Virus genome (UHGV): UHGV-0092341
Length of the DNA stretch: 31,377 bases
Source of the DNA: a virus
Direction: 5' to 3' (one strand)
Below the pieces are notes generated by a model, which was given only the letters and a program-made list of their open reading frames with translations, did not search any database and had not been told where the DNA came from. The translations under genes and the position numbers were made by a program. Positions 746-29,034 of the stretch are shown here, piece by piece. How positions within the stretch are numbered: position 1 is the stretch's first letter; every line of letters starts with the position of its first letter.

Positions 746-1276
746 TTACTGCACATCCTGCTCAAAAGGAATTATTGAAAAATCCTCAATATCACTTTTT
801 ATGGTAATACCGGGAATATTTTTCACGGCGTCCTTTTCATTCAGGATAGCGTCTTTATTTATTTCCTCTTTTACACGAATAAAGCGCTCAAGCCCCAGAC
901 GTCTCAGTAGTTCAATAACATTATCCGCTCCGCGAATGCTGACTGACGGCGGGCGGTTTCGCCACTGCACCTCGCCGGTGGTGAGGTTAGCAAACTTCAC
1001 CTTCCCGTTGCCGGTCAGTTCATCACGGTGTGCCTCACACCATGTCTGGATACCGGACTGCAGTTCGGCCATGCGTTTTTTCAGGCTCTCGGTGAGCGGG
1101 GCATAACGTGCAGTGATGTCGCCAATGGTGTCATTCATTTCTGTTTCAGCCCTGACCAGTTCACGTTGTGCGTCACCGAGCAGTCTGATGCCCTCAATGA
1201 CCTCTTCGCGTGTCCCTGGTACCCAGAGTGCCGCTGCGGACTTGATACGTTTTGCCCCTTTTGTACTTTTTGCCAT
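746..1276 (-). CDS. gam: Gam-like host-nuclease inhibitor / DNA-end-binding protein (Mu Gam family)
   Basis: 176 aa; N-terminal MAKSTKGAKRIKSAAA and C-terminal GITIKSDIEDFSIIPFEQ closely match my recollection of Mu Gam; sits downstream of B as in Mu. Confidence 0.85.
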   Translation of the reverse strand: MAKSTKGAKRIKSAAALWVPGTREEVIEGIRLLGDAQRELVRAETEMNDTIGDITARYAPLTESLKKRMAELQSGIQTWCEAHRDELTGNGKVKFANLTTGEVQWRNRPPSVSIRGADNVIELLRRLGLERFIRVKEEINKDAILNEKDAVKNIPGITIKSDIEDFSIIPFEQDVQ

Positions 1277-1575: not shown

Positions 1576-2742
1576 TTAAACCCCTTTGACAACGTCAGCA
1601 TTGACCTGTGGAACCCCGATTTCAGCGGCCAGATTCATGGCGGCTATCACCAGGTTACTGACGGCCAGCGGATACAGCAGGCTGACCATATTTTTACGAT
1701 GACTTCCCGGATTGCTCAGGCGGGCACGTATGGCATCCACTGCGCTGGCGTCCATAATGTCCGTCAGTTGTTTACCGGCCCGTTGCAGTTTGAACGTCAG
1801 AAATTCTTCAAGGTTATTGTCCAGAGGCAGAAGTTCGACCACCTCACAGCGCTGAACGACTTCACGGACTTCCATATTGCGTTCAGACAGTTTTGTCGCC
1901 AGTTCCGGCTGGCCAATCAGCACGATGGACAGCAGTTTTTTGAAACCGGACTCCAGCTCAAAAAAGCGTTTGAGGTGTTTCAGTGTCGGAATGGGCAGAC
2001 TGTGGGCCTCCTCAATCACCAAAACGTGGCTGAACCCCGCCTGGCTGCTGTCTTTCAGGACGCGATGCAACTGGCGAAAACGGGCGTCCTGACTGCGTCT
2101 GATGCTTTCCAGTGGTGCGATGGTACTGATAATGGCTTCGGCAATCGCTGCTGCCTTCAGGGTTTTCCCTTTCACATCGTTGTCTTCCATAGCGATGATG
2201 TATGGCTCGATAACAATTACCGGCGCATTCTCGCGGTTGATACGTTCAGTCAGGTCGCGGCGCAGCGTGGATTTACCCGCACCGGACTCACCGATGACGG
2301 CCATAAACCCACCATGACGGGCTGTCTGGTACAGCGCCTCACGCACGTAGCGAATGTCCGGGGTGGTGAACACATCATCAGAACCCTGCATGGCTTCGTC
2401 GGCGAACGGGTCACGGAAAAGACCAAACGCTTTTTTGGTTGCTGGAAATAACACCTGTTTTTTGAGTAACATATTCTCTTCCTCACTGAGGCTCGTTTTA
2501 TCTGTGGTACCCGCTGTACGGGGCGTGGCCGCGCCCTGTACAGCATCAAAACTCTTCGTTGTATCAATCCCCTGACTTTCCAGCCAGGACGCAAGACGCC
2601 GGCGCACTTCTCCAGGGCGGGTGCGGGGCCACGCGTTATGATTCACAATCTGGGCCAGCGTGGCCTCAGAAACATCGACAGCTCTCGCCACCACCGCCTG
2701 TGGGATACGGGCCTCTTTCAGTTGCTGCTTCAGTACCAGCAT
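1576..2742 (-). CDS. AAA+ ATPase, transposition target-DNA activator (MuB-like)
   Basis: Walker A GESGAGKST and Walker B HVLVIEEAH; directly downstream of transposase. I place the start at ATG 2742-2740 (SD GGAGG, 5-nt spacer, 10 nt after A stop) rather than the track's GTG at 2781. Confidence 0.8.
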   Translation of the reverse strand: MLVLKQQLKEARIPQAVVARAVDVSEATLAQIVNHNAWPRTRPGEVRRRLASWLESQGIDTTKSFDAVQGAATPRTAGTTDKTSLSEEENMLLKKQVLFPATKKAFGLFRDPFADEAMQGSDDVFTTPDIRYVREALYQTARHGGFMAVIGESGAGKSTLRRDLTERINRENAPVIVIEPYIIAMEDNDVKGKTLKAAAIAEAIISTIAPLESIRRSQDARFRQLHRVLKDSSQAGFSHVLVIEEAHSLPIPTLKHLKRFFELESGFKKLLSIVLIGQPELATKLSERNMEVREVVQRCEVVELLPLDNNLEEFLTFKLQRAGKQLTDIMDASAVDAIRARLSNPGSHRKNMVSLLYPLAVSNLVIAAMNLAAEIGVPQVNADVVKGV

Positions 2743-2752
2743 GTTTTCCTCC

Positions 2753-4522
2753 TCAGTTGCCGTTAACAATGCTGATAACACTGCTGCGGACCGGCGTGGT
2801 CAGCGTGGCCATGACTTCATCCAGTGCGGCTTCCGGTACGCCGTCCGGGTACTGTGCCGTTAACTGGCGGTAATGTTCCGGCGTCCAGGTAAGGCCGTCG
2901 GCGCTGAACTTATCGCGCAGGGCTTTCGCGGCCTCCACATGAGTCATGGGACGTTGTTCAGTGCGCGGCCCGCGTACGTCAGAGGCCTGACCACGCTTCG
3001 GCATATAGGCCGGAAGTGTGGCGTCATCAATATGTTTATACGGGTCAAGCCGCCCGCCGAACGGCAGCGCCTTCGCCTTGCGTGCGGCGGCTGCATCTGC
3101 GGCGTTGTCTGTACCGGTAACCAGCGCTTCGGTTTCTTTTGCCGCCATCTGTGCCGGGGTTTCCGGCAGGGCTTTGTAACTTTCGCCAAATACCGCCGCG
3201 CCTTCAGCAAAGCCAAACTCGTTCTTTCTGACCTCTTCGACCAGGAAGAACGTCTCGTGGCCGTCCTCACCGGTCAGAACCACCTGTGCCACATCGCTGC
3301 GCCATGGGTTACGGGTAATCATCAGTTTTTCACCAACCAGTACGCCCGGTACCGTTGATACGTCAAATTCAGTGCCCCGGAACGAGACACGAAGTTTTGG
3401 CGTGACTTTGCGGAGTTCTGGTGTCGCCACAGCCAGTTCACGGCATACCTCAACGGAAGGCGCTTTTTTCAGCTGCTCAGCAGTAATCTTCAGCCAGATA
3501 TCCGTGCGGGTTTTACCGTGGCGGCTGTGAACAGCCGTGGCGTTAAAGTGGCTGCGCCATTTCGCGGCCAGCGCGTTGAGTTCTTCCAGACTGTGAACCG
3601 GCCGGAACTTCAGACCCGGCTCCAGCTTGCGTTCGATAATGTCACGCGCCTTTTCCACCTGTCCGGTGGCGCGGGCGTTATGCGGCTTGTGTGCTATCAG
3701 GTCGATGCCCAGTGAGCGGCACATGTTTTTCGTCATACCCGCGGTGTTTGCCGAGCCGGGGTCGAGATAGAGTATTTTCGGCACGCCGTGCAGCACGTCT
3801 GCGCCGCCACGCTCCTGCATGGCGTTGATAAGCACAGAACACAGGTTCTCACCGGATTCCGCACCCGTCACATACTCAACGTAAATCCAGCCGCTGGCAT
3901 GGTCGGTAATCTCGTAACTCCACACGCGGTCACTGGCGATACGGGCAAGGTTAGCGGGCTTGTTCTTGTAGAACTTCGCGCTGTCCATCACCTGCAGTCC
4001 TTTGTGTCCATTACTCAGGTAGTAAAGCGTGCAGAGCGAGGCATCAATCTGCCAGACATGATTGGGATGCAGACTGGCCACTTCAGTATGTGGTGCAGGG
4101 GCATCCAGTTGTTCCGGGTGCAGGCCATAGTTACGCAGGGCTCGGCTGATGGCATCTTCGGACAACGGGAAAAACTCACCGGTGGTTTCATCTGTTCTGC
4201 CTGCGGAGATAAAGCCGTTAGCCCGCAGGGTTTCCACTGCATCCGCGATGGAATAGAGACGCTTACCGTTCTTGCGGGTGGCCTCACGCAGTGTGGCAGA
4301 TATCAGCGCGGCTTCGTCGCGGGTCAGGGCGCTGCGCCCGGCATCGGCGCGTTTTTTGCGTTTATCAGTCACAGAGACCTCCTTCAGCCTGCGCAGCAGA
4401 GTGGCGCGGGACATGCCAAGTTCAGCACAGGCAGCGTCGTATACTGCACCGCGTTTACCATGCCCCGCATTACGTGCCGCGCGGGCTGTTTCAACCAGTT
4501 TTTCAGTCAGTGCCGGGGTCAT
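2753..4522 (-). CDS. DDE transposase (MuA-like, rve/integrase core)
   Basis: 589 aa; HVWQIDAS-type first catalytic Asp region; N-terminal HTH-like segment; paired with B ATPase downstream; SD AGGGAAG upstream. Confidence 0.85.
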   Translation of the reverse strand: MTPALTEKLVETARAARNAGHGKRGAVYDAACAELGMSRATLLRRLKEVSVTDKRKKRADAGRSALTRDEAALISATLREATRKNGKRLYSIADAVETLRANGFISAGRTDETTGEFFPLSEDAISRALRNYGLHPEQLDAPAPHTEVASLHPNHVWQIDASLCTLYYLSNGHKGLQVMDSAKFYKNKPANLARIASDRVWSYEITDHASGWIYVEYVTGAESGENLCSVLINAMQERGGADVLHGVPKILYLDPGSANTAGMTKNMCRSLGIDLIAHKPHNARATGQVEKARDIIERKLEPGLKFRPVHSLEELNALAAKWRSHFNATAVHSRHGKTRTDIWLKITAEQLKKAPSVEVCRELAVATPELRKVTPKLRVSFRGTEFDVSTVPGVLVGEKLMITRNPWRSDVAQVVLTGEDGHETFFLVEEVRKNEFGFAEGAAVFGESYKALPETPAQMAAKETEALVTGTDNAADAAAARKAKALPFGGRLDPYKHIDDATLPAYMPKRGQASDVRGPRTEQRPMTHVEAAKALRDKFSADGLTWTPEHYRQLTAQYPDGVPEAALDEVMATLTTPVRSSVISIVNGN

Positions 4523-4537: not shown

Positions 4538-4855
4538 TTATCCGATTCTGGCGGCAATTTTTCTGGCGAGGTCGCACAGTGTTTCGCCATCGCAGGCTTT
4601 CACCACGGTATTTACCGGTTGCGGTACAGCTACCGGGCGCAATGCTGACTGAGACTGCAGGCGTCTTATCTGCTGCATCAGCATCTCCTCCATCGTCAGT
4701 ACAAACGGGTGCGCCTCCTGTGCGGGTACGCAGATTTCACCGGAAGGGGTTACCACGCGGAAACCCTGCACCATTTCCGGCACCAGATTACACAGTGCGT
4801 GCCCCAGTGCCTCAGGGCTGTCCATCAGGATATTTTGTGTGTTATTCGTATTCAT
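4538..4855 (-). CDS. hypothetical early protein (105 aa)
   Basis: ORF in track; ATG overlaps stop of upstream 305-aa gene (coupling); 15 nt upstream of transposase. Confidence 0.5.
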   Translation of the reverse strand: MNTNNTQNILMDSPEALGHALCNLVPEMVQGFRVVTPSGEICVPAQEAHPFVLTMEEMLMQQIRRLQSQSALRPVAVPQPVNTVVKACDGETLCDLARKIAARIG

Positions 4856-5772
4856 TACTGCATATCCTCCGGTCGGTTGATTTCAGGTTCCGGTTCGGTC
4901 AGCCAGGCGGGGACATCGTTACCCGATGGTGCGGCATCAAGGTCAAACGTCTCACGCAATGCATGAACACTGCGTTCAATCTGACAGACCAGACCGGCCA
5001 TGAAATCTCTGGGGGTATCAATCATGTTTTTACTGCAGTATTCACACAGGGTTTCAAAGGCACCGGACAGCCGGACGGCAACAGCAGATTCCGCTTCAAC
5101 CGCTAATGCCGTCACTTCCGCCCGCAGCTTCTTCATCTCTTCATCAGGCTCAGGCGGCTGAATACGGGATTTCTTCTCCAGTCTGGTGGAGAGTGAATCT
5201 ATTTTTTCATTTTTGTCGGCAAGTACGCGCTGTTGTGCTGCGTTGGTTTCACGCGCTTCGCGCAGAGCCTGACGGAGTTCACGTACTGACATGCGATCAA
5301 CGTCGTCAAGCGTCAGGCCGGCAACTGTGCCGCCGTCGGCCAGTTCGGCAAGGTCTTCGTCATCTTCAGCAACAAGTTCAAATAATTTTGCCTTACCTAA
5401 AAGCGACAACGTTGTCGCTTTTGGCTCTAGTTTTGGTGAAAGGTATTTCAAAGATGCTTTCATCATTCGTTGTGCTGCGCGCACATGCAGACCAAGTTGT
5501 TCTTCTACAATTCCAACAAAGTCCCCGTGTGGTTCATTTTCTTTGAGAATAATAAGCCGTTTACCTGCCTCCAGCATGGCCTCAGCGCTCTGTGCCATAT
5601 AAAACCGAGCCTCATGAACTATGCGATCTCGCTCATAGGGCTGACCATCGCCAAACTGCTGCATGATCTCCATGCGATGCTGTGTCATGGCGTTCAGACT
5701 GACATTGAGATCATCCGACAGAGGCTCCTCGGCGTTCAGTTCAGTGTTAACGGGGGATTTGGTGCGTCCCAT
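4855..5772 (-). CDS. hypothetical early protein (305 aa), acidic with coiled-coil-like centre
   Basis: Strong SD AAGGAG 6 nt upstream of ATG at 5772; no catalytic motif recognised. Confidence 0.55.
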   Translation of the reverse strand: MGRTKSPVNTELNAEEPLSDDLNVSLNAMTQHRMEIMQQFGDGQPYERDRIVHEARFYMAQSAEAMLEAGKRLIILKENEPHGDFVGIVEEQLGLHVRAAQRMMKASLKYLSPKLEPKATTLSLLGKAKLFELVAEDDEDLAELADGGTVAGLTLDDVDRMSVRELRQALREARETNAAQQRVLADKNEKIDSLSTRLEKKSRIQPPEPDEEMKKLRAEVTALAVEAESAVAVRLSGAFETLCEYCSKNMIDTPRDFMAGLVCQIERSVHALRETFDLDAAPSGNDVPAWLTEPEPEINRPEDMQ

Positions 5773-5782
5773 TGATTACTCC

Positions 5783-6091
5783 TTACAAACGACTACCTGA
5801 AATAACACGTTGGTTGATTTCGTTAATGCGATCCTGTGCACGTGCCATCTCGTTACTGTGGGCCATGGCGATCTGCAGTAACTGGATGCCCGGCGCGAAA
5901 CGCCCGTTTTCCAGTTTCAGAGCCAGCCCTTCTTCGATGAGGGTGTTGAGTGCCCGGTTGATGTTTGCCGGTGACTCGTGCAGTGCTGCCGCCAGTTCAC
6001 CGTTAGAAATACCATTCAGGGCATGACCGCGCAGCGCTTTGAGTACCCGGAGGATGCGACTGCCGGAGCTTGAAACATTCGTCTTACTCAT
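5783..6091 (-). CDS. winged-helix/HTH DNA-binding protein (second early regulator)
   Basis: HTH-like RILRVLKAL...ISNGELAAAL...INRALNTLIEEGL. I prefer ATG at 6091 (SD AAGAGG, 7-nt spacer) over track start 6097. Confidence 0.5.
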   Translation of the reverse strand: MSKTNVSSSGSRILRVLKALRGHALNGISNGELAAALHESPANINRALNTLIEEGLALKLENGRFAPGIQLLQIAMAHSNEMARAQDRINEINQRVISGSRL

Positions 6092-6143
6092 CTGCATACC
6101 TCTTTTGCGATATGTGATAACCTTTTACAAAGACTCAAAATCT

Positions 6144-6332
6144 TCAGGCTGCCTGAGCTGTTGATTTCAGCCCCAGTTTCACGGCGATTTCATGGGATTT
6201 ACCGTAACGGGCTTTGGTCTGCCCGTTGAGAACGCGGTATACCTCATTGCGGTTGTAGCCGTTTTCTTCTGCCCAGCGGGTGAACGTGATCCCGCGCTGG
6301 CGAAAGAGGGCTTTGACTTGTTCTGCAGTCAT
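6144..6332 (-). CDS. Ner/Cro-like small DNA-binding protein, first early gene
   Basis: 62 aa; strong SD AAGGAG; first gene of leftward operon, divergent from repressor as in Mu c/ner. Confidence 0.6.
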   Translation of the reverse strand: MTAEQVKALFRQRGITFTRWAEENGYNRNEVYRVLNGQTKARYGKSHEIAVKLGLKSTAQAA

Positions 6333-6432
6333 CGTTGTCTCCTTTGTTGATGCAATGATGTTTGCCTTATGTGTGATAGATTATGGTGCAGATTACCTCA
6401 CCAGTCAACTTAAAGAGTGCAGAAAAACTCAC
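6333..6432. promoter_or_regulatory. divergent early/repressor control region (promoters and operators expected)
   Basis: 100-bp AT-rich gap between divergent starts of Ner-like gene (6332) and repressor (6433); operators not mapped. Confidence 0.4.
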
Positions 6433-6771
6433 ATGATCGGGTTACGTATTAAAGAAGAAAGAGAGCGTCTATCTCTTACACAGCAAGGGTTGGCTGATGC
6501 TATAGGTGTGGCAAAGAGAACTTTCATTGATTGGGAAAAAGATCGCACTTCTCCTACTGCAGTGCAGTTATCTGCACTATCAGAAATCGGTGTAGATATT
6601 TTGTATGTAGTTACTGGGGTGCGGAGTCAGCCTGTTGTTGCACCGTATGTGTCACAAGAAAAGAAAGAGTTAATGGATGCATTCGACGAAATGAGCCCCG
6701 AACAACGGAGGGCAATTCTTGAGGTCGGCAAAGTCTTCATTCAACCAAAACCGAGCAAACTCGCAGGCTGA
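6433..6771 (+). CDS. XRE-family HTH repressor (c-repressor analogue)
   Basis: HTH LSLTQQGLADAIGVAKRTFIDWEKDRTSP. Start taken at ATG 6433 because the track's 6280 start would overlap the Ner-like gene. Confidence 0.65.
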   Translation: MIGLRIKEERERLSLTQQGLADAIGVAKRTFIDWEKDRTSPTAVQLSALSEIGVDILYVVTGVRSQPVVAPYVSQEKKELMDAFDEMSPEQRRAILEVGKVFIQPKPSKLAG

Positions 6772-6857
6772 TTCTGACCCGGACACAAAGGGCGCGTGGT
6801 TGATCTGGATGCTTTCAGAAAACATCGCCAGTGACATAGTGGAAGTTGTCTGGTTTA

Positions 6858-6884
6858 CCGGAAAGCATTGCGCTTTCCGGTTTT
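6858..6884 (+). terminator. rho-independent terminator-like hairpin (9-bp stem CCGGAAAGC/GCTTTCCGG, 5-nt loop, then TTTT)
   Basis: Read directly from sequence; lies between convergent repressor and methyltransferase 3' ends. Confidence 0.5.
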
Positions 6885-6887
6885 GCT

Positions 6888-7652
6888 TCAGAAGTTGCAG
6901 ATTACCAGTTCACGGCGCGGCGTGGGTTTCCCCGCCAGACTGTAGTTGATATTCACCGTCTGTATGTTCAGTTCAGTGAACACCCGACGCATCTGCGGAA
7001 TGTCGTTCACCGAGATAATCATCTTTCCTCTGATGCACCGGGCCAGTTCTGCGAGTAGTGTGTAGTTCTCTTCAGGAAAATCCACACCATAGCCTTCCGT
7101 CCCCAGATAGGGCGGATCACAGTAGAACAGCGTGTGCGGACGGTCATAACGCTTAATGCACTGGTGCCAGTCCATGTGTTCTATCACCGTTCTGGAAAGC
7201 CGCAGGTGTGCCGCTGACAGTTCTTCTTCAATACGTAGCAGATTGAAGCGTGGCGGAGATGTGGTGGAGGTGCCGAAGCTGTGCCCTGCCACCTTGCCAC
7301 CAAATGCCTGCTTCTGGAGGTAGTAGAACCGTGCCGCACGCTGGATATCCGTCAGTGTTTCTTCCGGGGTGATCTGCAGCCATTTGTAGATCTGCCGGCT
7401 GACCAGCGCCCATTTGAACTGGCGGATAAATTCTTCCAGGTGATGTTTTACCACCCGGTACAGATTCACCAGTTCACCATTGATATCGTTAATGACTTCG
7501 AGCTTGCCGGGAGTCTTGAGAAAATAGAGCGCAGCTGCGCCGCAGAACGGCTCCACATAACATTCATGCGCAGGAAACAGCGGCAGGATGTGTTTTCCCA
7601 GGCGGCGTTTGCCACCAATCCATGGAACGATGGGTAATGTCTGCGTTTTCAT
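6888..7652 (-). CDS. Dam-like N6-adenine DNA methyltransferase (D12 class), orphan
   Basis: 254 aa; motif I FCGAAA near N-terminus and motif IV DPPY (FYCDPPYLG) near C-terminus; no adjacent restriction-enzyme-like gene. Confidence 0.8.
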   Translation of the reverse strand: MKTQTLPIVPWIGGKRRLGKHILPLFPAHECYVEPFCGAAALYFLKTPGKLEVINDINGELVNLYRVVKHHLEEFIRQFKWALVSRQIYKWLQITPEETLTDIQRAARFYYLQKQAFGGKVAGHSFGTSTTSPPRFNLLRIEEELSAAHLRLSRTVIEHMDWHQCIKRYDRPHTLFYCDPPYLGTEGYGVDFPEENYTLLAELARCIRGKMIISVNDIPQMRRVFTELNIQTVNINYSLAGKPTPRRELVICNF

Positions 7653-7794: not shown

Positions 7795-7841
7795 CATGAT
7801 GCGGCAGGGATAGTGGGATTTCTGTTAATGTGGTTTAGGGA

Positions 7842-8057
7842 TTATCCGGGGCGATTTTCTGACCTTATCTGGTCCAGGGCATAAGTGATCCCTTCTGCAA
7901 AAACAGAAGTATCAAACTGCTTTTGTATTTCCTGAAAATGAACAGTAGCACGACAGATACTCAGTTCTCCGCGATGTAACCGGATAATATCTTCCAGAAT
8001 ATTGTTCACTGCTTCAGCACGGCGCTGATGTTCTGTTAACGTTAATCGGGGATTCAT
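7842..8057 (-). CDS. hypothetical protein (71 aa)
   Basis: Perfect SD AAGGAG with 6-nt spacer before ATG at 8057; no motif recognised. Confidence 0.5.
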   Translation of the reverse strand: MNPRLTLTEHQRRAEAVNNILEDIIRLHRGELSICRATVHFQEIQKQFDTSVFAEGITYALDQIRSENRPG

Positions 8058-8460
8058 GATGCACTCCTTAAATGATGATTTTTATGTACTCACCGGCAAA
8101 ATATTCTGCCGATTACTGAACACGCATCCGGCACCTCAGGTTTTGATTTATTCTGGTTTTTTCGATATCCCGGACCAGGTTGATCACGACCAGAAAAAGT
8201 GCCGGTATTTTATTGATACGCTGATATGGCTTCGGGATAACAGCTATATTCGTTACTCTCAGTTGCTGGCTGTGGGAGCGGCTGATGTCGTCCTCACGGA
8301 AAAAACGCTCTGTCTGCTCAATGCCATGCCGACCTTTCTGCAGCCCCGGCCCGTACCATTTAAAGAGTTGCTTCTGGATGCAGTAAAAACCGGCGAAAAT
8401 GCAGTCATCGCTGAATGCGTATCCCGGATTATGCGTTACGTGTTTAATGAACGTAAGTGA
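8056..8460 (+). CDS. hypothetical protein (134 aa), AT-rich, nested antisense between two minus-strand genes
   Basis: Only long ORF across 8058-8435. Start codon overlaps the divergent 71-aa gene start; 3' end overlaps the P-loop gene 3' end by 25 nt. About 39% GC over the first 105 nt (hand count). Weak RBS. Confidence 0.45.
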   Translation: MMHSLNDDFYVLTGKIFCRLLNTHPAPQVLIYSGFFDIPDQVDHDQKKCRYFIDTLIWLRDNSYIRYSQLLAVGAADVVLTEKTLCLLNAMPTFLQPRPVPFKELLLDAVKTGENAVIAECVSRIMRYVFNERK

Positions 8461-9179
8461 GGTTTATCTGCTGTCTGCATAATCCCGATAGCCAGTGCGA
8501 GGGGAAGTAATTCCGGGGAAACTCTTTCAAACAGCGATGCCCATTCTCCTCTCGCCATCACTCTGTCCAGTCCGCCCCCCAGCTGCATTTCAGCAATCTT
8601 CCTGATTTCCCGGAACAACGCCGCTTTGATCTCTTCATGCTCAGCTTTATTTTCCGGTGTCAGAATGTATTCGTCGAAGAACCGGGGAAGCTGGTTAACG
8701 GGGATTGTGTTCACCGGGAGGTGTTCCTGCTTCCCGTACTTCGGGGCCGAAAAACATTCTGTTGGCTGACCGGTGAGTTTACGTAACTCCTTCATGAGCA
8801 GTTCCTGATCGTAAACTGTCATCAGTGCCGCAATGGTGGCATGCAGTGCATCGGGCAGTATCCAGGGTTGTCGGCCCGTGGGGCATATAACATCCAGCAG
8901 CTCATTCGTCCGACAGATACGCTCCTCGCCGTATGACAACAGGTCCTGTCCTGTGTATTCCTCCAGCCTGATCACTGTGCCAGCCCGTGGCTTCTGCCAG
9001 GTCGTCAGATCATCGCCACTCATACGGCGCTCATTCTCCACGTCAGCAGCATCGACAATGACGCTGTTTCCGAGTTCCTGTTTCACCACTTCCTCTATCC
9101 GCGCCAGTACGTAACTTTTACCGCTGCCCACAGGACCGGACACGGTGACAGTGATGACCGGATTCAGTGTATGTGTCAT
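8436..9179 (-). CDS. P-loop NTPase/kinase-like protein (247 aa), function unknown
   Basis: Walker A GPVGSGKS at residues 15-22, candidate Walker B VIVDAAD about 20 residues later; SD GAGGAG 8 nt upstream; divergent from late operon. Confidence 0.65.
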   Translation of the reverse strand: MTHTLNPVITVTVSGPVGSGKSYVLARIEEVVKQELGNSVIVDAADVENERRMSGDDLTTWQKPRAGTVIRLEEYTGQDLLSYGEERICRTNELLDVICPTGRQPWILPDALHATIAALMTVYDQELLMKELRKLTGQPTECFSAPKYGKQEHLPVNTIPVNQLPRFFDEYILTPENKAEHEEIKAALFREIRKIAEMQLGGGLDRVMARGEWASLFERVSPELLPLALAIGIMQTADKPHLRSLNT

Positions 9180-9237
9180 GTTGCATTCTCCTCTGTGAAT
9201 AATTCATCGTTTATCCTGCACATCCCGTATCCCCGGC

Positions 9238-9288
9238 TCTCTTAACGCGCTTTAAAATCCTTCGCGCCCTGTATTTGTGATGCTGTCT
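9238..9288 (+). promoter_or_regulatory. candidate late promoter P-lys (conserved bipartite motif, copy 1)
   Basis: TCTCTTAA-N4-CTTTAAAATC-N20-ATGCTGTCT, ending 22 nt before the first late gene; same architecture at three other sites. Confidence 0.5.
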
Positions 9289-9309
9289 CCACCAGACAAG
9301 GAGACACAC

Positions 9310-9660
9310 ATGAAAAACCTGAAAAAATTCATTCCCCCTGTTAAAAAACCTCGCCTCAGCGGCTGGCTGCTGACCTCAGTGCTGTTGCTGGGCACCATCG
9401 CTCTGGTCTCGCCACAGCAGTTGCCTGTTGTGATCTACAAGCTGGCACTCATCACGCTGGCAGCAGTGCTGGGTTACTGGCTTGACCGTTCGCTCTTCCC
9501 TAAAGCCCGTCCCGGTCAGTACCTGAAACATGAAGACAGGCTGATGGCTGATGGGCGTTTCCCTGTACAGACCGGCCTTCACCTGGTGTTTTCTGCTGCG
9601 TTAATCCGCCGTGCACTGATTGTTGCAGCAGTCTGTCTGGCCGTAGCGATGGGGCTTTAA
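9310..9660 (+). CDS. holin-like membrane protein (three predicted TM segments)
   Basis: SD AAGGAG before ATG 9310; three hydrophobic helices; first gene of lysis cassette, stop overlaps endolysin start. Confidence 0.55.
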   Translation: MKNLKKFIPPVKKPRLSGWLLTSVLLLGTIALVSPQQLPVVIYKLALITLAAVLGYWLDRSLFPKARPGQYLKHEDRLMADGRFPVQTGLHLVFSAALIRRALIVAAVCLAVAMGL

Positions 9661-22331: not shown

Positions 22332-22357
22332 AGGGGCTCCGGCCCCTTCTTCTTAAT
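22332..22357 (+). terminator. terminator-like hairpin (AGGGGC-TCCG-GCCCCT) followed by TTCTTCTT
   Basis: Read directly; overlaps upstream edge of the late-promoter motif at 22349. Confidence 0.4.
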
Positions 22358-22399
22358 CTCCTTTAATATCCGTCACGCGCTTCTCCCGACATACTGCCC
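22349..22399 (+). promoter_or_regulatory. candidate late promoter (conserved bipartite motif, copy 3), upstream of tail chaperone/tape-measure block
   Basis: CTTCTTAA-N4-CTTTAATATC-N20-ATACTGCCC, ending 24 nt before ATG 22423. Confidence 0.5.
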
Positions 22400-22422: not shown

Positions 22423-22758
22423 ATGTCACAGACCCCATCCGATACTTTTAAATTGTCTTATCCCTTCACCACTGCTGCAGGCACCAGAATTGAGCTGGTT
22501 GAACTGAAACGCCTGACGGTAAAAGACCTGAAGCAGGTGCGCAAAATCAGCAAAAACCCGGCAGACTGGGACGAACCGCTGATTGCCCGCAGTACTGGTC
22601 TTCTCCCGGAAGATCTCGACAATATGGATCTGGCTGATTACCTGCAGTTACAGAAACGATTTCAGCTCATCACGGGGATGGGTGAGAGCAACCAGGGCGC
22701 TGACGCAGGCGCAGGGGCTGCTGGCGAGATGGTTCCGGTTTCAGCCGGGGGAGATTGA
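22423..22758 (+). CDS. tail assembly chaperone (P2 gpE-like)
   Basis: 111 aa acidic protein just upstream of tape measure; SD CAGGAG; overlapped at 3' end by a protein-like ORF in the +1 frame. Confidence 0.6.
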   Translation: MSQTPSDTFKLSYPFTTAAGTRIELVELKRLTVKDLKQVRKISKNPADWDEPLIARSTGLLPEDLDNMDLADYLQLQKRFQLITGMGESNQGADAGAGAAGEMVPVSAGGD

Positions 22759-28633: not shown

Positions 28634-28684
28634 CTTCTTAAACGCCTTTAATATCGGCGTTCCCGCACAGGGGCAATACTGCCC
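28634..28684 (+). promoter_or_regulatory. candidate late promoter (conserved bipartite motif, copy 4), upstream of baseplate genes
   Basis: CTTCTTAA-N4-CTTTAATATC-N20-ATACTGCCC; spacer holds hairpin GGGGCA-ATAC-TGCCCC; motif ends 3 nt before ATG 28687. Confidence 0.5.
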
Positions 28685-28686
28685 CC

Positions 28687-29034
28687 ATGAAAACAACTTC
28701 CGTATTCTGGCAACCGGCCCTGCAGGCTCCCGGCGAAATTGTCCGGGGGCTGGATGATATCTGGCAGGCGATTCAAATTATCCTGCGAACTCCCCGTGGC
28801 AGCGACCCGCATCGCCCAGAGTTCGGCAGCAATCTGCATCTTTATATCGACTGGCCTGTAAACCGGGCCATTCCTCATGTGGTGCGCGAATCTGTCGATG
28901 CCATCCGGCGCTGGGAGCCTCGCTGCCAGCTTATGTCGGTTAAACCCGCCGTCGACGGCGAACATCTTACGCTCCGGGTGAGCTGGAAAGGCTCTGACGG
29001 ACAGCCCCGGACTCAGGAGTTGCTATGGCGCTGA
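28687..29034 (+). CDS. baseplate wedge protein (GPW/gp25-like)
   Basis: 115 aa; motif RTPRGSDPHRPEFGSNL typical of gp25/GPW family; no SD, start may be leaderless or mis-set. Confidence 0.65.
   Translation: MKTTSVFWQPALQAPGEIVRGLDDIWQAIQIILRTPRGSDPHRPEFGSNLHLYIDWPVNRAIPHVVRESVDAIRRWEPRCQLMSVKPAVDGEHLTLRVSWKGSDGQPRTQELLWR

Follow-up and report, generated by a model that had tools for sequence, protein, structure and literature searches.

The open reading frame (ORF) that occupies positions 8436 to 9179 on the minus strand of the UHGV virus genome UHGV-0092341, a stretch of 31,377 nucleotides (nt) referred to below, at its full length, as the window, encodes a protein of 247 amino acids (aa) with an N-terminal Walker A motif. 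The window is a BcepMu-like transposable prophage, and the reading proposed for this target gene, which is advanced tentatively and for architecture and role taken jointly, is that of a lineage-specific accessory protein of enterobacterial BcepMu-like phages, in which a constant mini P-loop head is joined to an exchangeable tail, and which would serve in phage-host conflict or host takeover. The features of the gene and its product are as follows, where AF2 stands for AlphaFold2 and pLDDT for its predicted local distance difference test score.

8436 to 9179, minus strand: target ORF, ATG start, 247 aa plus stop, a member of phrog_3787
9188 to 9193, minus strand: Shine-Dalgarno sequence GAGGAG, 8 nt 5' of the ATG, its GAGGA core invariant across lineages
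8946 to 9179, minus strand: mini P-loop module, residues 1-78, the sole part common to all relatives and also found as standalone phage proteins of 68-90 aa
9114 to 9137, minus strand: Walker A motif GPVGSGKS, residues 15-22, read directly and conserved
9027 to 9032, minus strand: E50-R51, in the loop or short helix that comes after strand 2: a near-invariant Glu and then Arg/Lys, taken from the alignments
8958 to 8975, minus strand: third strand, TVIRLEE core, residues 69-74 (AF2 strand 69-75), with E74 at 90% or more; a candidate Walker-B-like element
8760 to 8945, minus strand: middle helical segment, residues 79-140, absent from 182-aa variants
8661 to 8759, minus strand: predicted disordered linker, residues 141-173, AF2 pLDDT below 50
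8439 to 8660, minus strand: C-terminal helical bundle, residues 174-247, absent from 141-aa and 158-aa variants

The ORF is real, goes beyond a chance reading frame and is under purifying selection, given that the protein matches the phrog_3787 profile over its full length (E = 1.1e-162, residues 1-247 on profile positions 1-242 of 242), that the public collection holds an identical protein and near-identical copies in many contigs, that the region from 7800 to 9300 was found in 584 of 5426 complete Escherichia coli genomes (~11%), and that the ratio of non-synonymous to synonymous substitution rates (dN/dS) among nine 247-aa variants is low (0.33 for residues 1-78, 0.17 for 79-140, 0.08 for 141-173 and 0.12 for 174-247). 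Among sequenced phages, Escherichia phage PhiKM (genus Bcepmuvirus) comes closest, and its version of the target protein has 92.7% aa identity. At this level, the first-pass annotation of the window, made from its letters alone, was borne out: the 247-aa ORF, the Walker A at residues 15-22 and the hydrophobic strand VIVDAAD (residues 40-46) are all present in the translation, the gene has a strong ribosome-binding site of its own, and it is transcribed divergently from the late operon, being on the minus strand with the holin, the SLT endolysin and the late operon on the plus strand.

Truncated forms of 141, 158 and 182 aa are common, and many truncated or frameshifted fragments are found among the database matches, which, together with the fact that the constant part abuts a conserved intergenic region, could be taken to mean that the gene is what is left of a larger ATPase gene, decaying or without function, and kept only through the overlap of its 5' end with the late-promoter region. 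Such an origin is extremely unlikely, given that each of the four segments has a dN/dS well under 1, that the intact 247-aa clusters hold far more of the member sequences than the truncated ones, and that phages unrelated to these, with no promoter of this kind, have modules of 33-58% identity in which the Walker A is retained.

The constant head was delimited through an exhaustive phmmer search of 1.84 billion representative sequences, which returned just 54 matches with an E of 0.001 or better; beyond the close copies, all of these, which are between about 70 and 364 aa long, can be aligned with the target over residues 1 to ~75 alone. The enterobacterial members come from E. coli, Salmonella enterica and Citrobacter braakii, and nearly all of the records are named "hypothetical protein". 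A word-indexed homologue search recovered close E. coli copies only, and the profile version of this search added standalone members of 70-90 aa and no annotated relative. The module occurs alone in several phmmer matches of 73-90 aa and in a 68-aa case in locus L035, the overall range being 68-90 aa on phage contigs, and phrog_3787 is matched by 43 of the 51 family members. One of the two loci obtained from a scan of GTDB species genomes (L007) proved to encode a true PilT ATPase and was set aside as a false positive.

Across the family, the head is recognised by a hydrophobic strand, the loop G-P/x-x-G-x-G-K-S, a helix (x-V-L-x-x-I-E-x-x-L...Y/F-G), a short hydrophobic strand, the motif [D/E]-L/V-x-x-E-[R/K], then, in the majority of the longer members with several modules, a W-x-x-P, and lastly a hydrophobic strand whose final residue is Glu. 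In alignments of 22-51 relatives, G15, G18, G20, K21, S22, I28, E50 and E74 are conserved at 90% or more, a level that W61 reaches only in the 22-sequence alignment. Of the two Walker-like motifs proposed in the first-pass annotation, the Walker A is kept among the homologues, whereas D43, the acidic residue of VIVDAAD which had been put forward as the Walker B, is D, E, V, G, T or L across the family and is thus not conserved. In one sub-lineage (P0026, P0049 and P0051), in which the Walker A reads GAE[SN][SA]GKN, S22 is replaced by N, D46 by A and E50 by K together, and this joint change suggests that the three residues form a single ligand or metal site; judging from these replacements, the branch may be a pseudo-enzyme in which the fold has been kept and the ligand site lost. 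The P-loop module is mildly acidic, a charge that speaks against non-specific binding of nucleic acids.

Membership of the P-loop superfamily appears to hold at the motif level only. The target obtained nothing but sub-threshold Pfam matches, the best being AAA_30 (17 bits against a cut-off of 27), and the 51 family members together matched ~25 different P-loop families, always over the P-loop segment and never at threshold; NCBIfam returned sub-threshold P-loop matches only, and among the PADLOC defence profiles, which include KAP, BrxC, HerA and mad8, the best match (SngB, E = 0.011) covered the P-loop segment only and was not significant. When the family profile was compared with the PDB sequences, only positions ~10-48 aligned, the matches being the nucleotide-binding domains (NBDs) of ABC transporters (E = 1e-5), 6c2u (1.3e-4), cytidylate kinase (3.7e-4), 9jix (6e-4) and also UreG. 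The direct searches of the target against Pfam, NCBIfam, PADLOC and the PDB sequences gave sub-threshold matches of P-loop type only, and the ~170 residues that follow the module match no profile, in agreement with the earlier description of a remainder devoid of recognisable motifs.

Some records bear the automatic name "ABC transporter ATPase", and an ABC-type ATPase was considered and rejected: the NBD alignment spans positions 10-48 only, ABC_tran was matched below threshold by 12 of the 51 members (best E = 1e-4), and the stretch LGGGLDR (residues 200-206) does not stand as an ABC signature, as G201 is E in variants and no hhhhDE Walker B follows it.

Structure prediction gave a similar picture. 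The full-length AF2 run, based on 51 aligned sequences, reached a pLDDT of 62.6, with a strand at residues 8-14, a helix at 21-39, a two-residue strand at 41-42 and a strand at 69-75, followed beyond the module by helices, the disordered segment 141-173 and the C-terminal helical bundle; a Foldseek search of this model against the PDB found nothing better than E = 0.15. Residues 1-80 modelled alone reached a pLDDT of 86 and a predicted template-modelling score (pTM) of 0.74, the only elements assigned by DSSP being helices at 21-39 and 45-54. In BFVD, one unnamed viral protein of 82 aa has the same fold (template-modelling score, TM, 0.67; 32% identity). A three-layer alpha/beta/alpha core with a parallel sheet of at least five strands was not found in the target, and the modelled module resembles the first third of a P-loop NTPase, without the five-stranded core, the canonical Walker B, the LID or the acceptor site.

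These results bear directly on the small nucleotide kinase-like fold suggested in the first-pass annotation, i.e., on the possibility that the protein is a small kinase acting on nucleotides, nucleosides or polynucleotides, or else a zeta-like kinase toxin, in which the Walker A would bind ATP and the Asp ~20 residues further on would activate the acceptor. The order of a GxxGSGKS and an hhhhD ~20 residues on resembles that of T4 polynucleotide kinase (PNK), shikimate kinase and gluconate kinase, and the target has in common with the small kinases and toxins (adenylate, cytidylate and shikimate kinase, T4 PNK and zeta) an N-terminal GxxGxGK[ST] and a strand with an acidic residue at this distance. 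Weak matches to Zeta_toxin (12.2 bits against a cut-off of 22.3; E = 0.12) and uridine kinase (11.4 against 180; E = 0.17) point the same way, as does the profile match to cytidylate kinase given above; in Pfam, Cytidylate_kin was matched by two of the 51 members, with a best E of 7e-4 that is below threshold. The likeness goes no further, however, as D43 is not conserved, no profile match reaches threshold, no kinase is matched structurally, and the target has no LID or acceptor-binding region and nothing conserved past residue ~75, so that the kinase-like fold was not upheld and a kinase or zeta-like toxin is quite improbable. The target is not recognisable as a kinase, an ABC ATPase or a known defence ATPase.

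Past residue ~75, the protein is a mosaic. In the alignment of close E. coli copies, the 182-aa forms lack residues ~53-124, and the 141-aa forms have lost the C-terminal half and carry a different short tail, the 158-aa forms being similarly truncated. More widely, the tails of the enterobacterial members are made up of short, mostly helical modules which recur in varied order and combination, a reshuffling that spans the prophages of E. coli, Salmonella and Citrobacter, and which have no match in Pfam. For example, the module W-x-LPDA-H-x-IAAL...YDQ-L...ELRK is found halfway along the target and, in the Salmonella proteins P0024 and P0026, at the C-terminus, the module I-T-x-DDL-x-DRPVPVHIQ...DLQPV-DLVNWA is found in at least a dozen members, and other modules in only two or three. 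Residues 98-177 of P0034 are homologous to a free-standing gene of 124 aa in Pseudomonas Mu-like phages (E down to 4e-8). In phage JBD25, this gene (gp0023, locus L043, 3908-4282; 124 aa, hypothetical, no P-loop), homologous to an internal module of the Salmonella proteins P0029 and P0034, occupies the slot of the target, divergent from the holin/SLT cassette. Given this, at least some of the modules are independent units, and the slot seems to be an accessory one across genera.

The slot itself is fixed. In each of the 27 BcepMu-like loci recovered, ~100-130 bp separate the start of the target gene from the holin, which lies on the other strand, and the cargo downstream of the target differs between loci. 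BcepMu has in the same interval the unrelated plus-strand genes gp18-20 and no homologue of the target, which is therefore lineage-specific cargo.

The short region between the target and the holin, together with two other intergenic regions of the window, contains the following elements.

9242 to 9255, no strand: dyad TTAACGCGCTTTAA (TTAAAG-N2-C[G/T]TTAA), conserved across lineages; a candidate late-activator site
9213 to 9218, minus strand: -10-like hexamer CAGGAT on the target side, at a distance of 30 nt from the centre of the dyad (all 27 loci)
9279 to 9284, plus strand: -10-like hexamer GATGCT after TGT on the holin side, at a distance of 30 nt from the centre of the dyad (24 of the 27 loci)
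22353 to 22366, intergenic: dyad copy, with CATACT at 22390-22395, 30 nt from the centre, and a plus-strand late ORF at 22423
28638 to 28651, intergenic: dyad copy, with AATACT at 28675-28680, 30 nt from the centre, and a plus-strand late ORF at 28687

A script check placed CAG[A/G]AT exactly 30 nt targetward of the dyad centre in each of the 27 loci, and the 30-nt spacing on both sides puts this centre at about -42.5 of two back-to-back promoter-like sites, in an intergenic region in which no sigma-70 -35/-10 pair was detected. The dyad (TTAA-N6-TTAA, core TTAAAG-N2-CTTTAA) is present four times in the window, against 0.45 expected, and none of 100 shuffles reached four. The fourth match, at 1576-1589, falls within a coding region or on its border and probably arose by chance.

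In phage Mu, the Mor/C-dependent promoters have this same arrangement of dyad and hexamer, and the three intergenic dyads look like activator-dependent late promoters, analogous to Plys, PI and PP of Mu. In sequence, the features in common with the C-dependent late genes are a dyad ~43 bp upstream, a weak or absent -35 and the repetition of the arrangement at several late starts; on the other hand, the dyad described here is specific to enterobacterial BcepMu-like phages, and one site seems to serve two putative divergent promoters. The com-mom operon of Mu offers a further likeness, as a non-structural unit which contains a DNA-modification gene and is under apparent late control. From this geometry, it is likely, as far as may be inferred, that the candidate activator site of the lysis operon also acts on its other side and switches on the target at the same time as the late genes.

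The putative late promoter is also a point in favour of a morphogenesis or packaging accessory, or of a protein packaged in the virion and ejected with the DNA, and the family repeatedly adjoins the small terminase gene (TerS), an HNH-TerS pair or virion structural clusters in unrelated phages. For example, the distant members P0055, P0056 and P0058 lie directly upstream of DUF7941 paralogues, which match "virion structural protein" families of PHROG, and another distant member follows a small terminase (Terminase_2, E = 1e-8), with yet another placed between an HNH gene and TerS. The DUF7941 genes form clusters of three to five paralogues (L005, 1449-1973; L044, 7730-12591; L045, 5209-10210), on metagenomic contigs of up to 141 kb. 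This explanation is nevertheless unlikely, as BcepMu and JBD25 have the same virion module and lack the target, and the common truncation to 141, 158 or 182 aa argues that the protein is not an essential assembly factor.

In the accessory role preferred here, the mini P-loop would bind a nucleotide or another phosphate-bearing ligand via its Walker A, with E50 and/or E74 taking the Mg2+/water (acid) role, and the head, given that a single module is too small for a complete NTPase core, would probably self-associate as an oligomer to complete the site. The head would then act as a binding or switch "handle", by which the variable modules are brought into contact with changing protein targets of the host or of phages. 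Transcription is most likely to occur late in the lytic cycle, and this timing points to an accessory function in phage-host conflict or host takeover, and not to a metabolic kinase. Such a function, of which counter-defence would be the most likely form, fits the probable late expression, the mosaicism, the restriction to phages and the swap-prone slot. A bolder version, in which an autonomous natural P-loop of ~75 residues with an oligomer-completed site is the constant handle for swappable modules that neutralise host factors, produced late and possibly packaged in the virion, as a polyvalent counter-defence on a small scale, is doubtful. To our knowledge, a module of ~75 residues is smaller than any natural P-loop NTPase known.

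Several observations weigh against this account. The strands at 8-14 and 69-75 are present in the full-length AF2 model and absent from the model of the module alone, a disagreement which leaves the pairing of strands 1 and 3 and the Walker-B-like role of E74 uncertain. The putative late promoter was recognised by the geometry of its sequence; neither BcepMu nor JBD25 has the dyad, which is lineage-specific, no activator gene was identified in the window, and none of the Mor/C type was found among the small ORFs at its left end. Some of the standalone members adjoin replication genes, i.e., those of a single-stranded DNA-binding protein (SSB) and a DNA ligase, so that the association with late modules is a tendency and no rule. 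Finally, no known defence or counter-defence family is matched and the neighbouring cargo genes are orphans, which means that it is only by its variability that the region qualifies as a conflict locus.

Among the systems already described, the target belongs to the P-loop world and is not a new kind of system. Its module corresponds to the segment formed by strand 1, P-loop, helix 1 and strand 2 of the ABC NBDs and of SIMIBI proteins (UreG, dethiobiotin synthetase and the GPN-loop GTPase). The best non-ABC sequence matches are engineered minimal P-loops, i.e., the 6c2u/6c2v prototypes and the de novo ATPase PL2x4_2 (9jix), which are of similar size and have a beta-(P-loop)-alpha arrangement like that of the target module (E = 1.3e-4 for 6c2u and 6e-4 for 9jix with the profile, and 0.034 with a single sequence). 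Two studies describe prototype P-loop proteins as binding nucleotides, polyphosphate and nucleic acids (10.1101/2020.07.30.228619; PMC10119929). The engineered proteins are consensus-based or designed, whereas the target module is natural, phage-restricted and mildly acidic, has its own E50, W61 and E74, and is predicted to bind a ligand.

The family was already known as an unannotated cluster, phrog_3787 of PHROGs v4, a label to which no function, structure or literature is attached, and nothing on the target gene was found in the literature on BcepMu-like E. coli prophages, Bcepmuvirus, PhiKM, the morons of JBD25 or minimal P-loops. What is new is the delineation of an autonomous P-loop module of ~75 aa, found also as proteins of 68-90 aa, its fusion to reshuffled modules and its promoter context. 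Should the module prove to bind nucleotides or to hydrolyse them, it would be the natural equivalent of the engineered minimal P-loops that model the origin of NTPases, and would indicate to what size a Walker A domain can shrink in vivo and still work. The family is rare and phage-restricted (54 among 1.84 billion), yet is carried by about a tenth of the complete E. coli genomes, and a constant head with a reshuffled tail in a fixed and probably late-activated slot is an arrangement which has repeatedly yielded new functions of host interference. The region also offers a testable model of how late promoters are organised in BcepMu-like prophages of enterobacteria. Specialists in protein evolution and in phage conflict would take an interest in a natural mini P-loop; if none of this holds, the target is one more orphan prophage gene.

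The setting of the gene within the prophage, which bears on the remaining alternatives, is formed by the following elements.

746 to 1276, minus strand: Gam
1576 to 2781, minus strand: AAA_22 MuB/TniB-like ATPase
2753 to 4522, minus strand: rve transposase
4855 to 5772, minus strand: DUF3102 protein
5783 to 6097, minus strand: winged-helix Ner-like protein
6280 to 6771, plus strand: HTH_3 repressor
6857 to 6881, between the convergent repressor and Dam genes: bidirectional terminator-like hairpin, 10-bp stem with T-runs
6888 to 7652, minus strand: D12-class Dam methylase
7842 to 8057, minus strand: orf71
8056 to 8460, plus strand: orf134 (phrog_2266, labelled as function unknown)

The interval between the repressor and the lysis cassette is thus composed of Dam, orf71, orf134 and the target, after which the plus-strand late region opens with the holin (PF13272, E = 1.8e-41) and the SLT endolysin. 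This cargo is unstable. The orf134 gene is deleted in loci L009 and L011, and L010 has an additional orf134-like gene, with 27% identity; in L014-L019 (6515-8173), the target is cut to 158 aa and two predicted membrane proteins replace orf134, orf71 and Dam; and L028-L031 carry other orphan genes beside the target. The two membrane proteins, of 196 and 328 aa, are co-oriented with the repressor, match no known family and are candidates for lysogen-expressed exclusion functions. Most of the related prophages have Dam, but L014-L019 and L029 lack it and still retain the P-loop gene. None of the cargo genes matched the defence profiles, and the sole identity obtained from Pfam is a YecR-like lipoprotein.

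A variable cargo region of this kind, located between the immunity repressor and the lysis genes and containing swappable membrane proteins, lipoproteins and Dam beside the target, would also suit a defence or superinfection-exclusion protein expressed in the lysogen, whose C-terminal modules would sense the proteins of an invading phage, with the P-loop as the switch; a constant NTPase head with C-termini that vary is typical of defence proteins of the sensor type. The head is, however, far too small for a STAND, AAA or ABC engine and there is no effector domain; the best PADLOC match is confined to the P-loop segment, as stated above, and the standalone members of 70-90 aa are devoid of a sensor part. 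In addition, no sigma-70 promoter was detected upstream of the gene, whose promoter geometry is that of the late operon. Expression of this type in the lysogen has, overall, a low probability.

The target is also co-directional with orf71 and Dam, in a unit that ends at the 6857-6881 terminator-like hairpin, and the order of P-loop gene and Dam is repeated in the Salmonella loci L003, L004, L028 and L031. The protein could therefore be a helper of the downstream Dam, in a late "mom-like" DNA-modification operon made up of the P-loop protein, orf71 and Dam, for which com-mom of Mu is a precedent of late-expressed DNA modification. This has little probability, given that L014-L019 and L029 keep the P-loop gene without Dam, that orf134, on the opposite strand, lies between the target and the Dam unit in the window, and that the standalone relatives are not linked to methyltransferases. 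More generally, obligate two-gene models (a toxin-antitoxin pair or a Dam helper) were set aside, as orf134, orf71 and Dam are missing in several loci; no conserved partner gene was found in these loci, nor a common neighbour around the standalone members, and the lack of an obligatory neighbour argues against a pair of either type.

Some minor observations were made on the neighbouring genes. In the window, orf134 opposes the minus-strand genes that flank it, its 3' end overlapping the 3' end of the target by 25 nt and its start codon standing back-to-back with the start of orf71 (8057); the GenBank record of PhiKM has no annotation of orf134. The start of the holin is probably the ATG at 9310, and not the GTG at 9277 of the ORF list, as no Pfam or PHROG match begins before residue 12. 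The inverted repeat GTCTCC-N9-GGAGAC, at 9285-9305, overlaps the Shine-Dalgarno of the holin (AAGGAGAC, just before the ATG at 9310), with both arms invariant in all lineages and the loop variable, and may form a hairpin that sequesters this ribosome-binding site, providing translational control of the timing of lysis. Finally, in the early operon, downstream of Gam, a 64-aa ORF on the minus strand (454-648) contains two CxxC pairs, in a zinc-ribbon-like arrangement, and has faint matches to Pfam zinc fingers.

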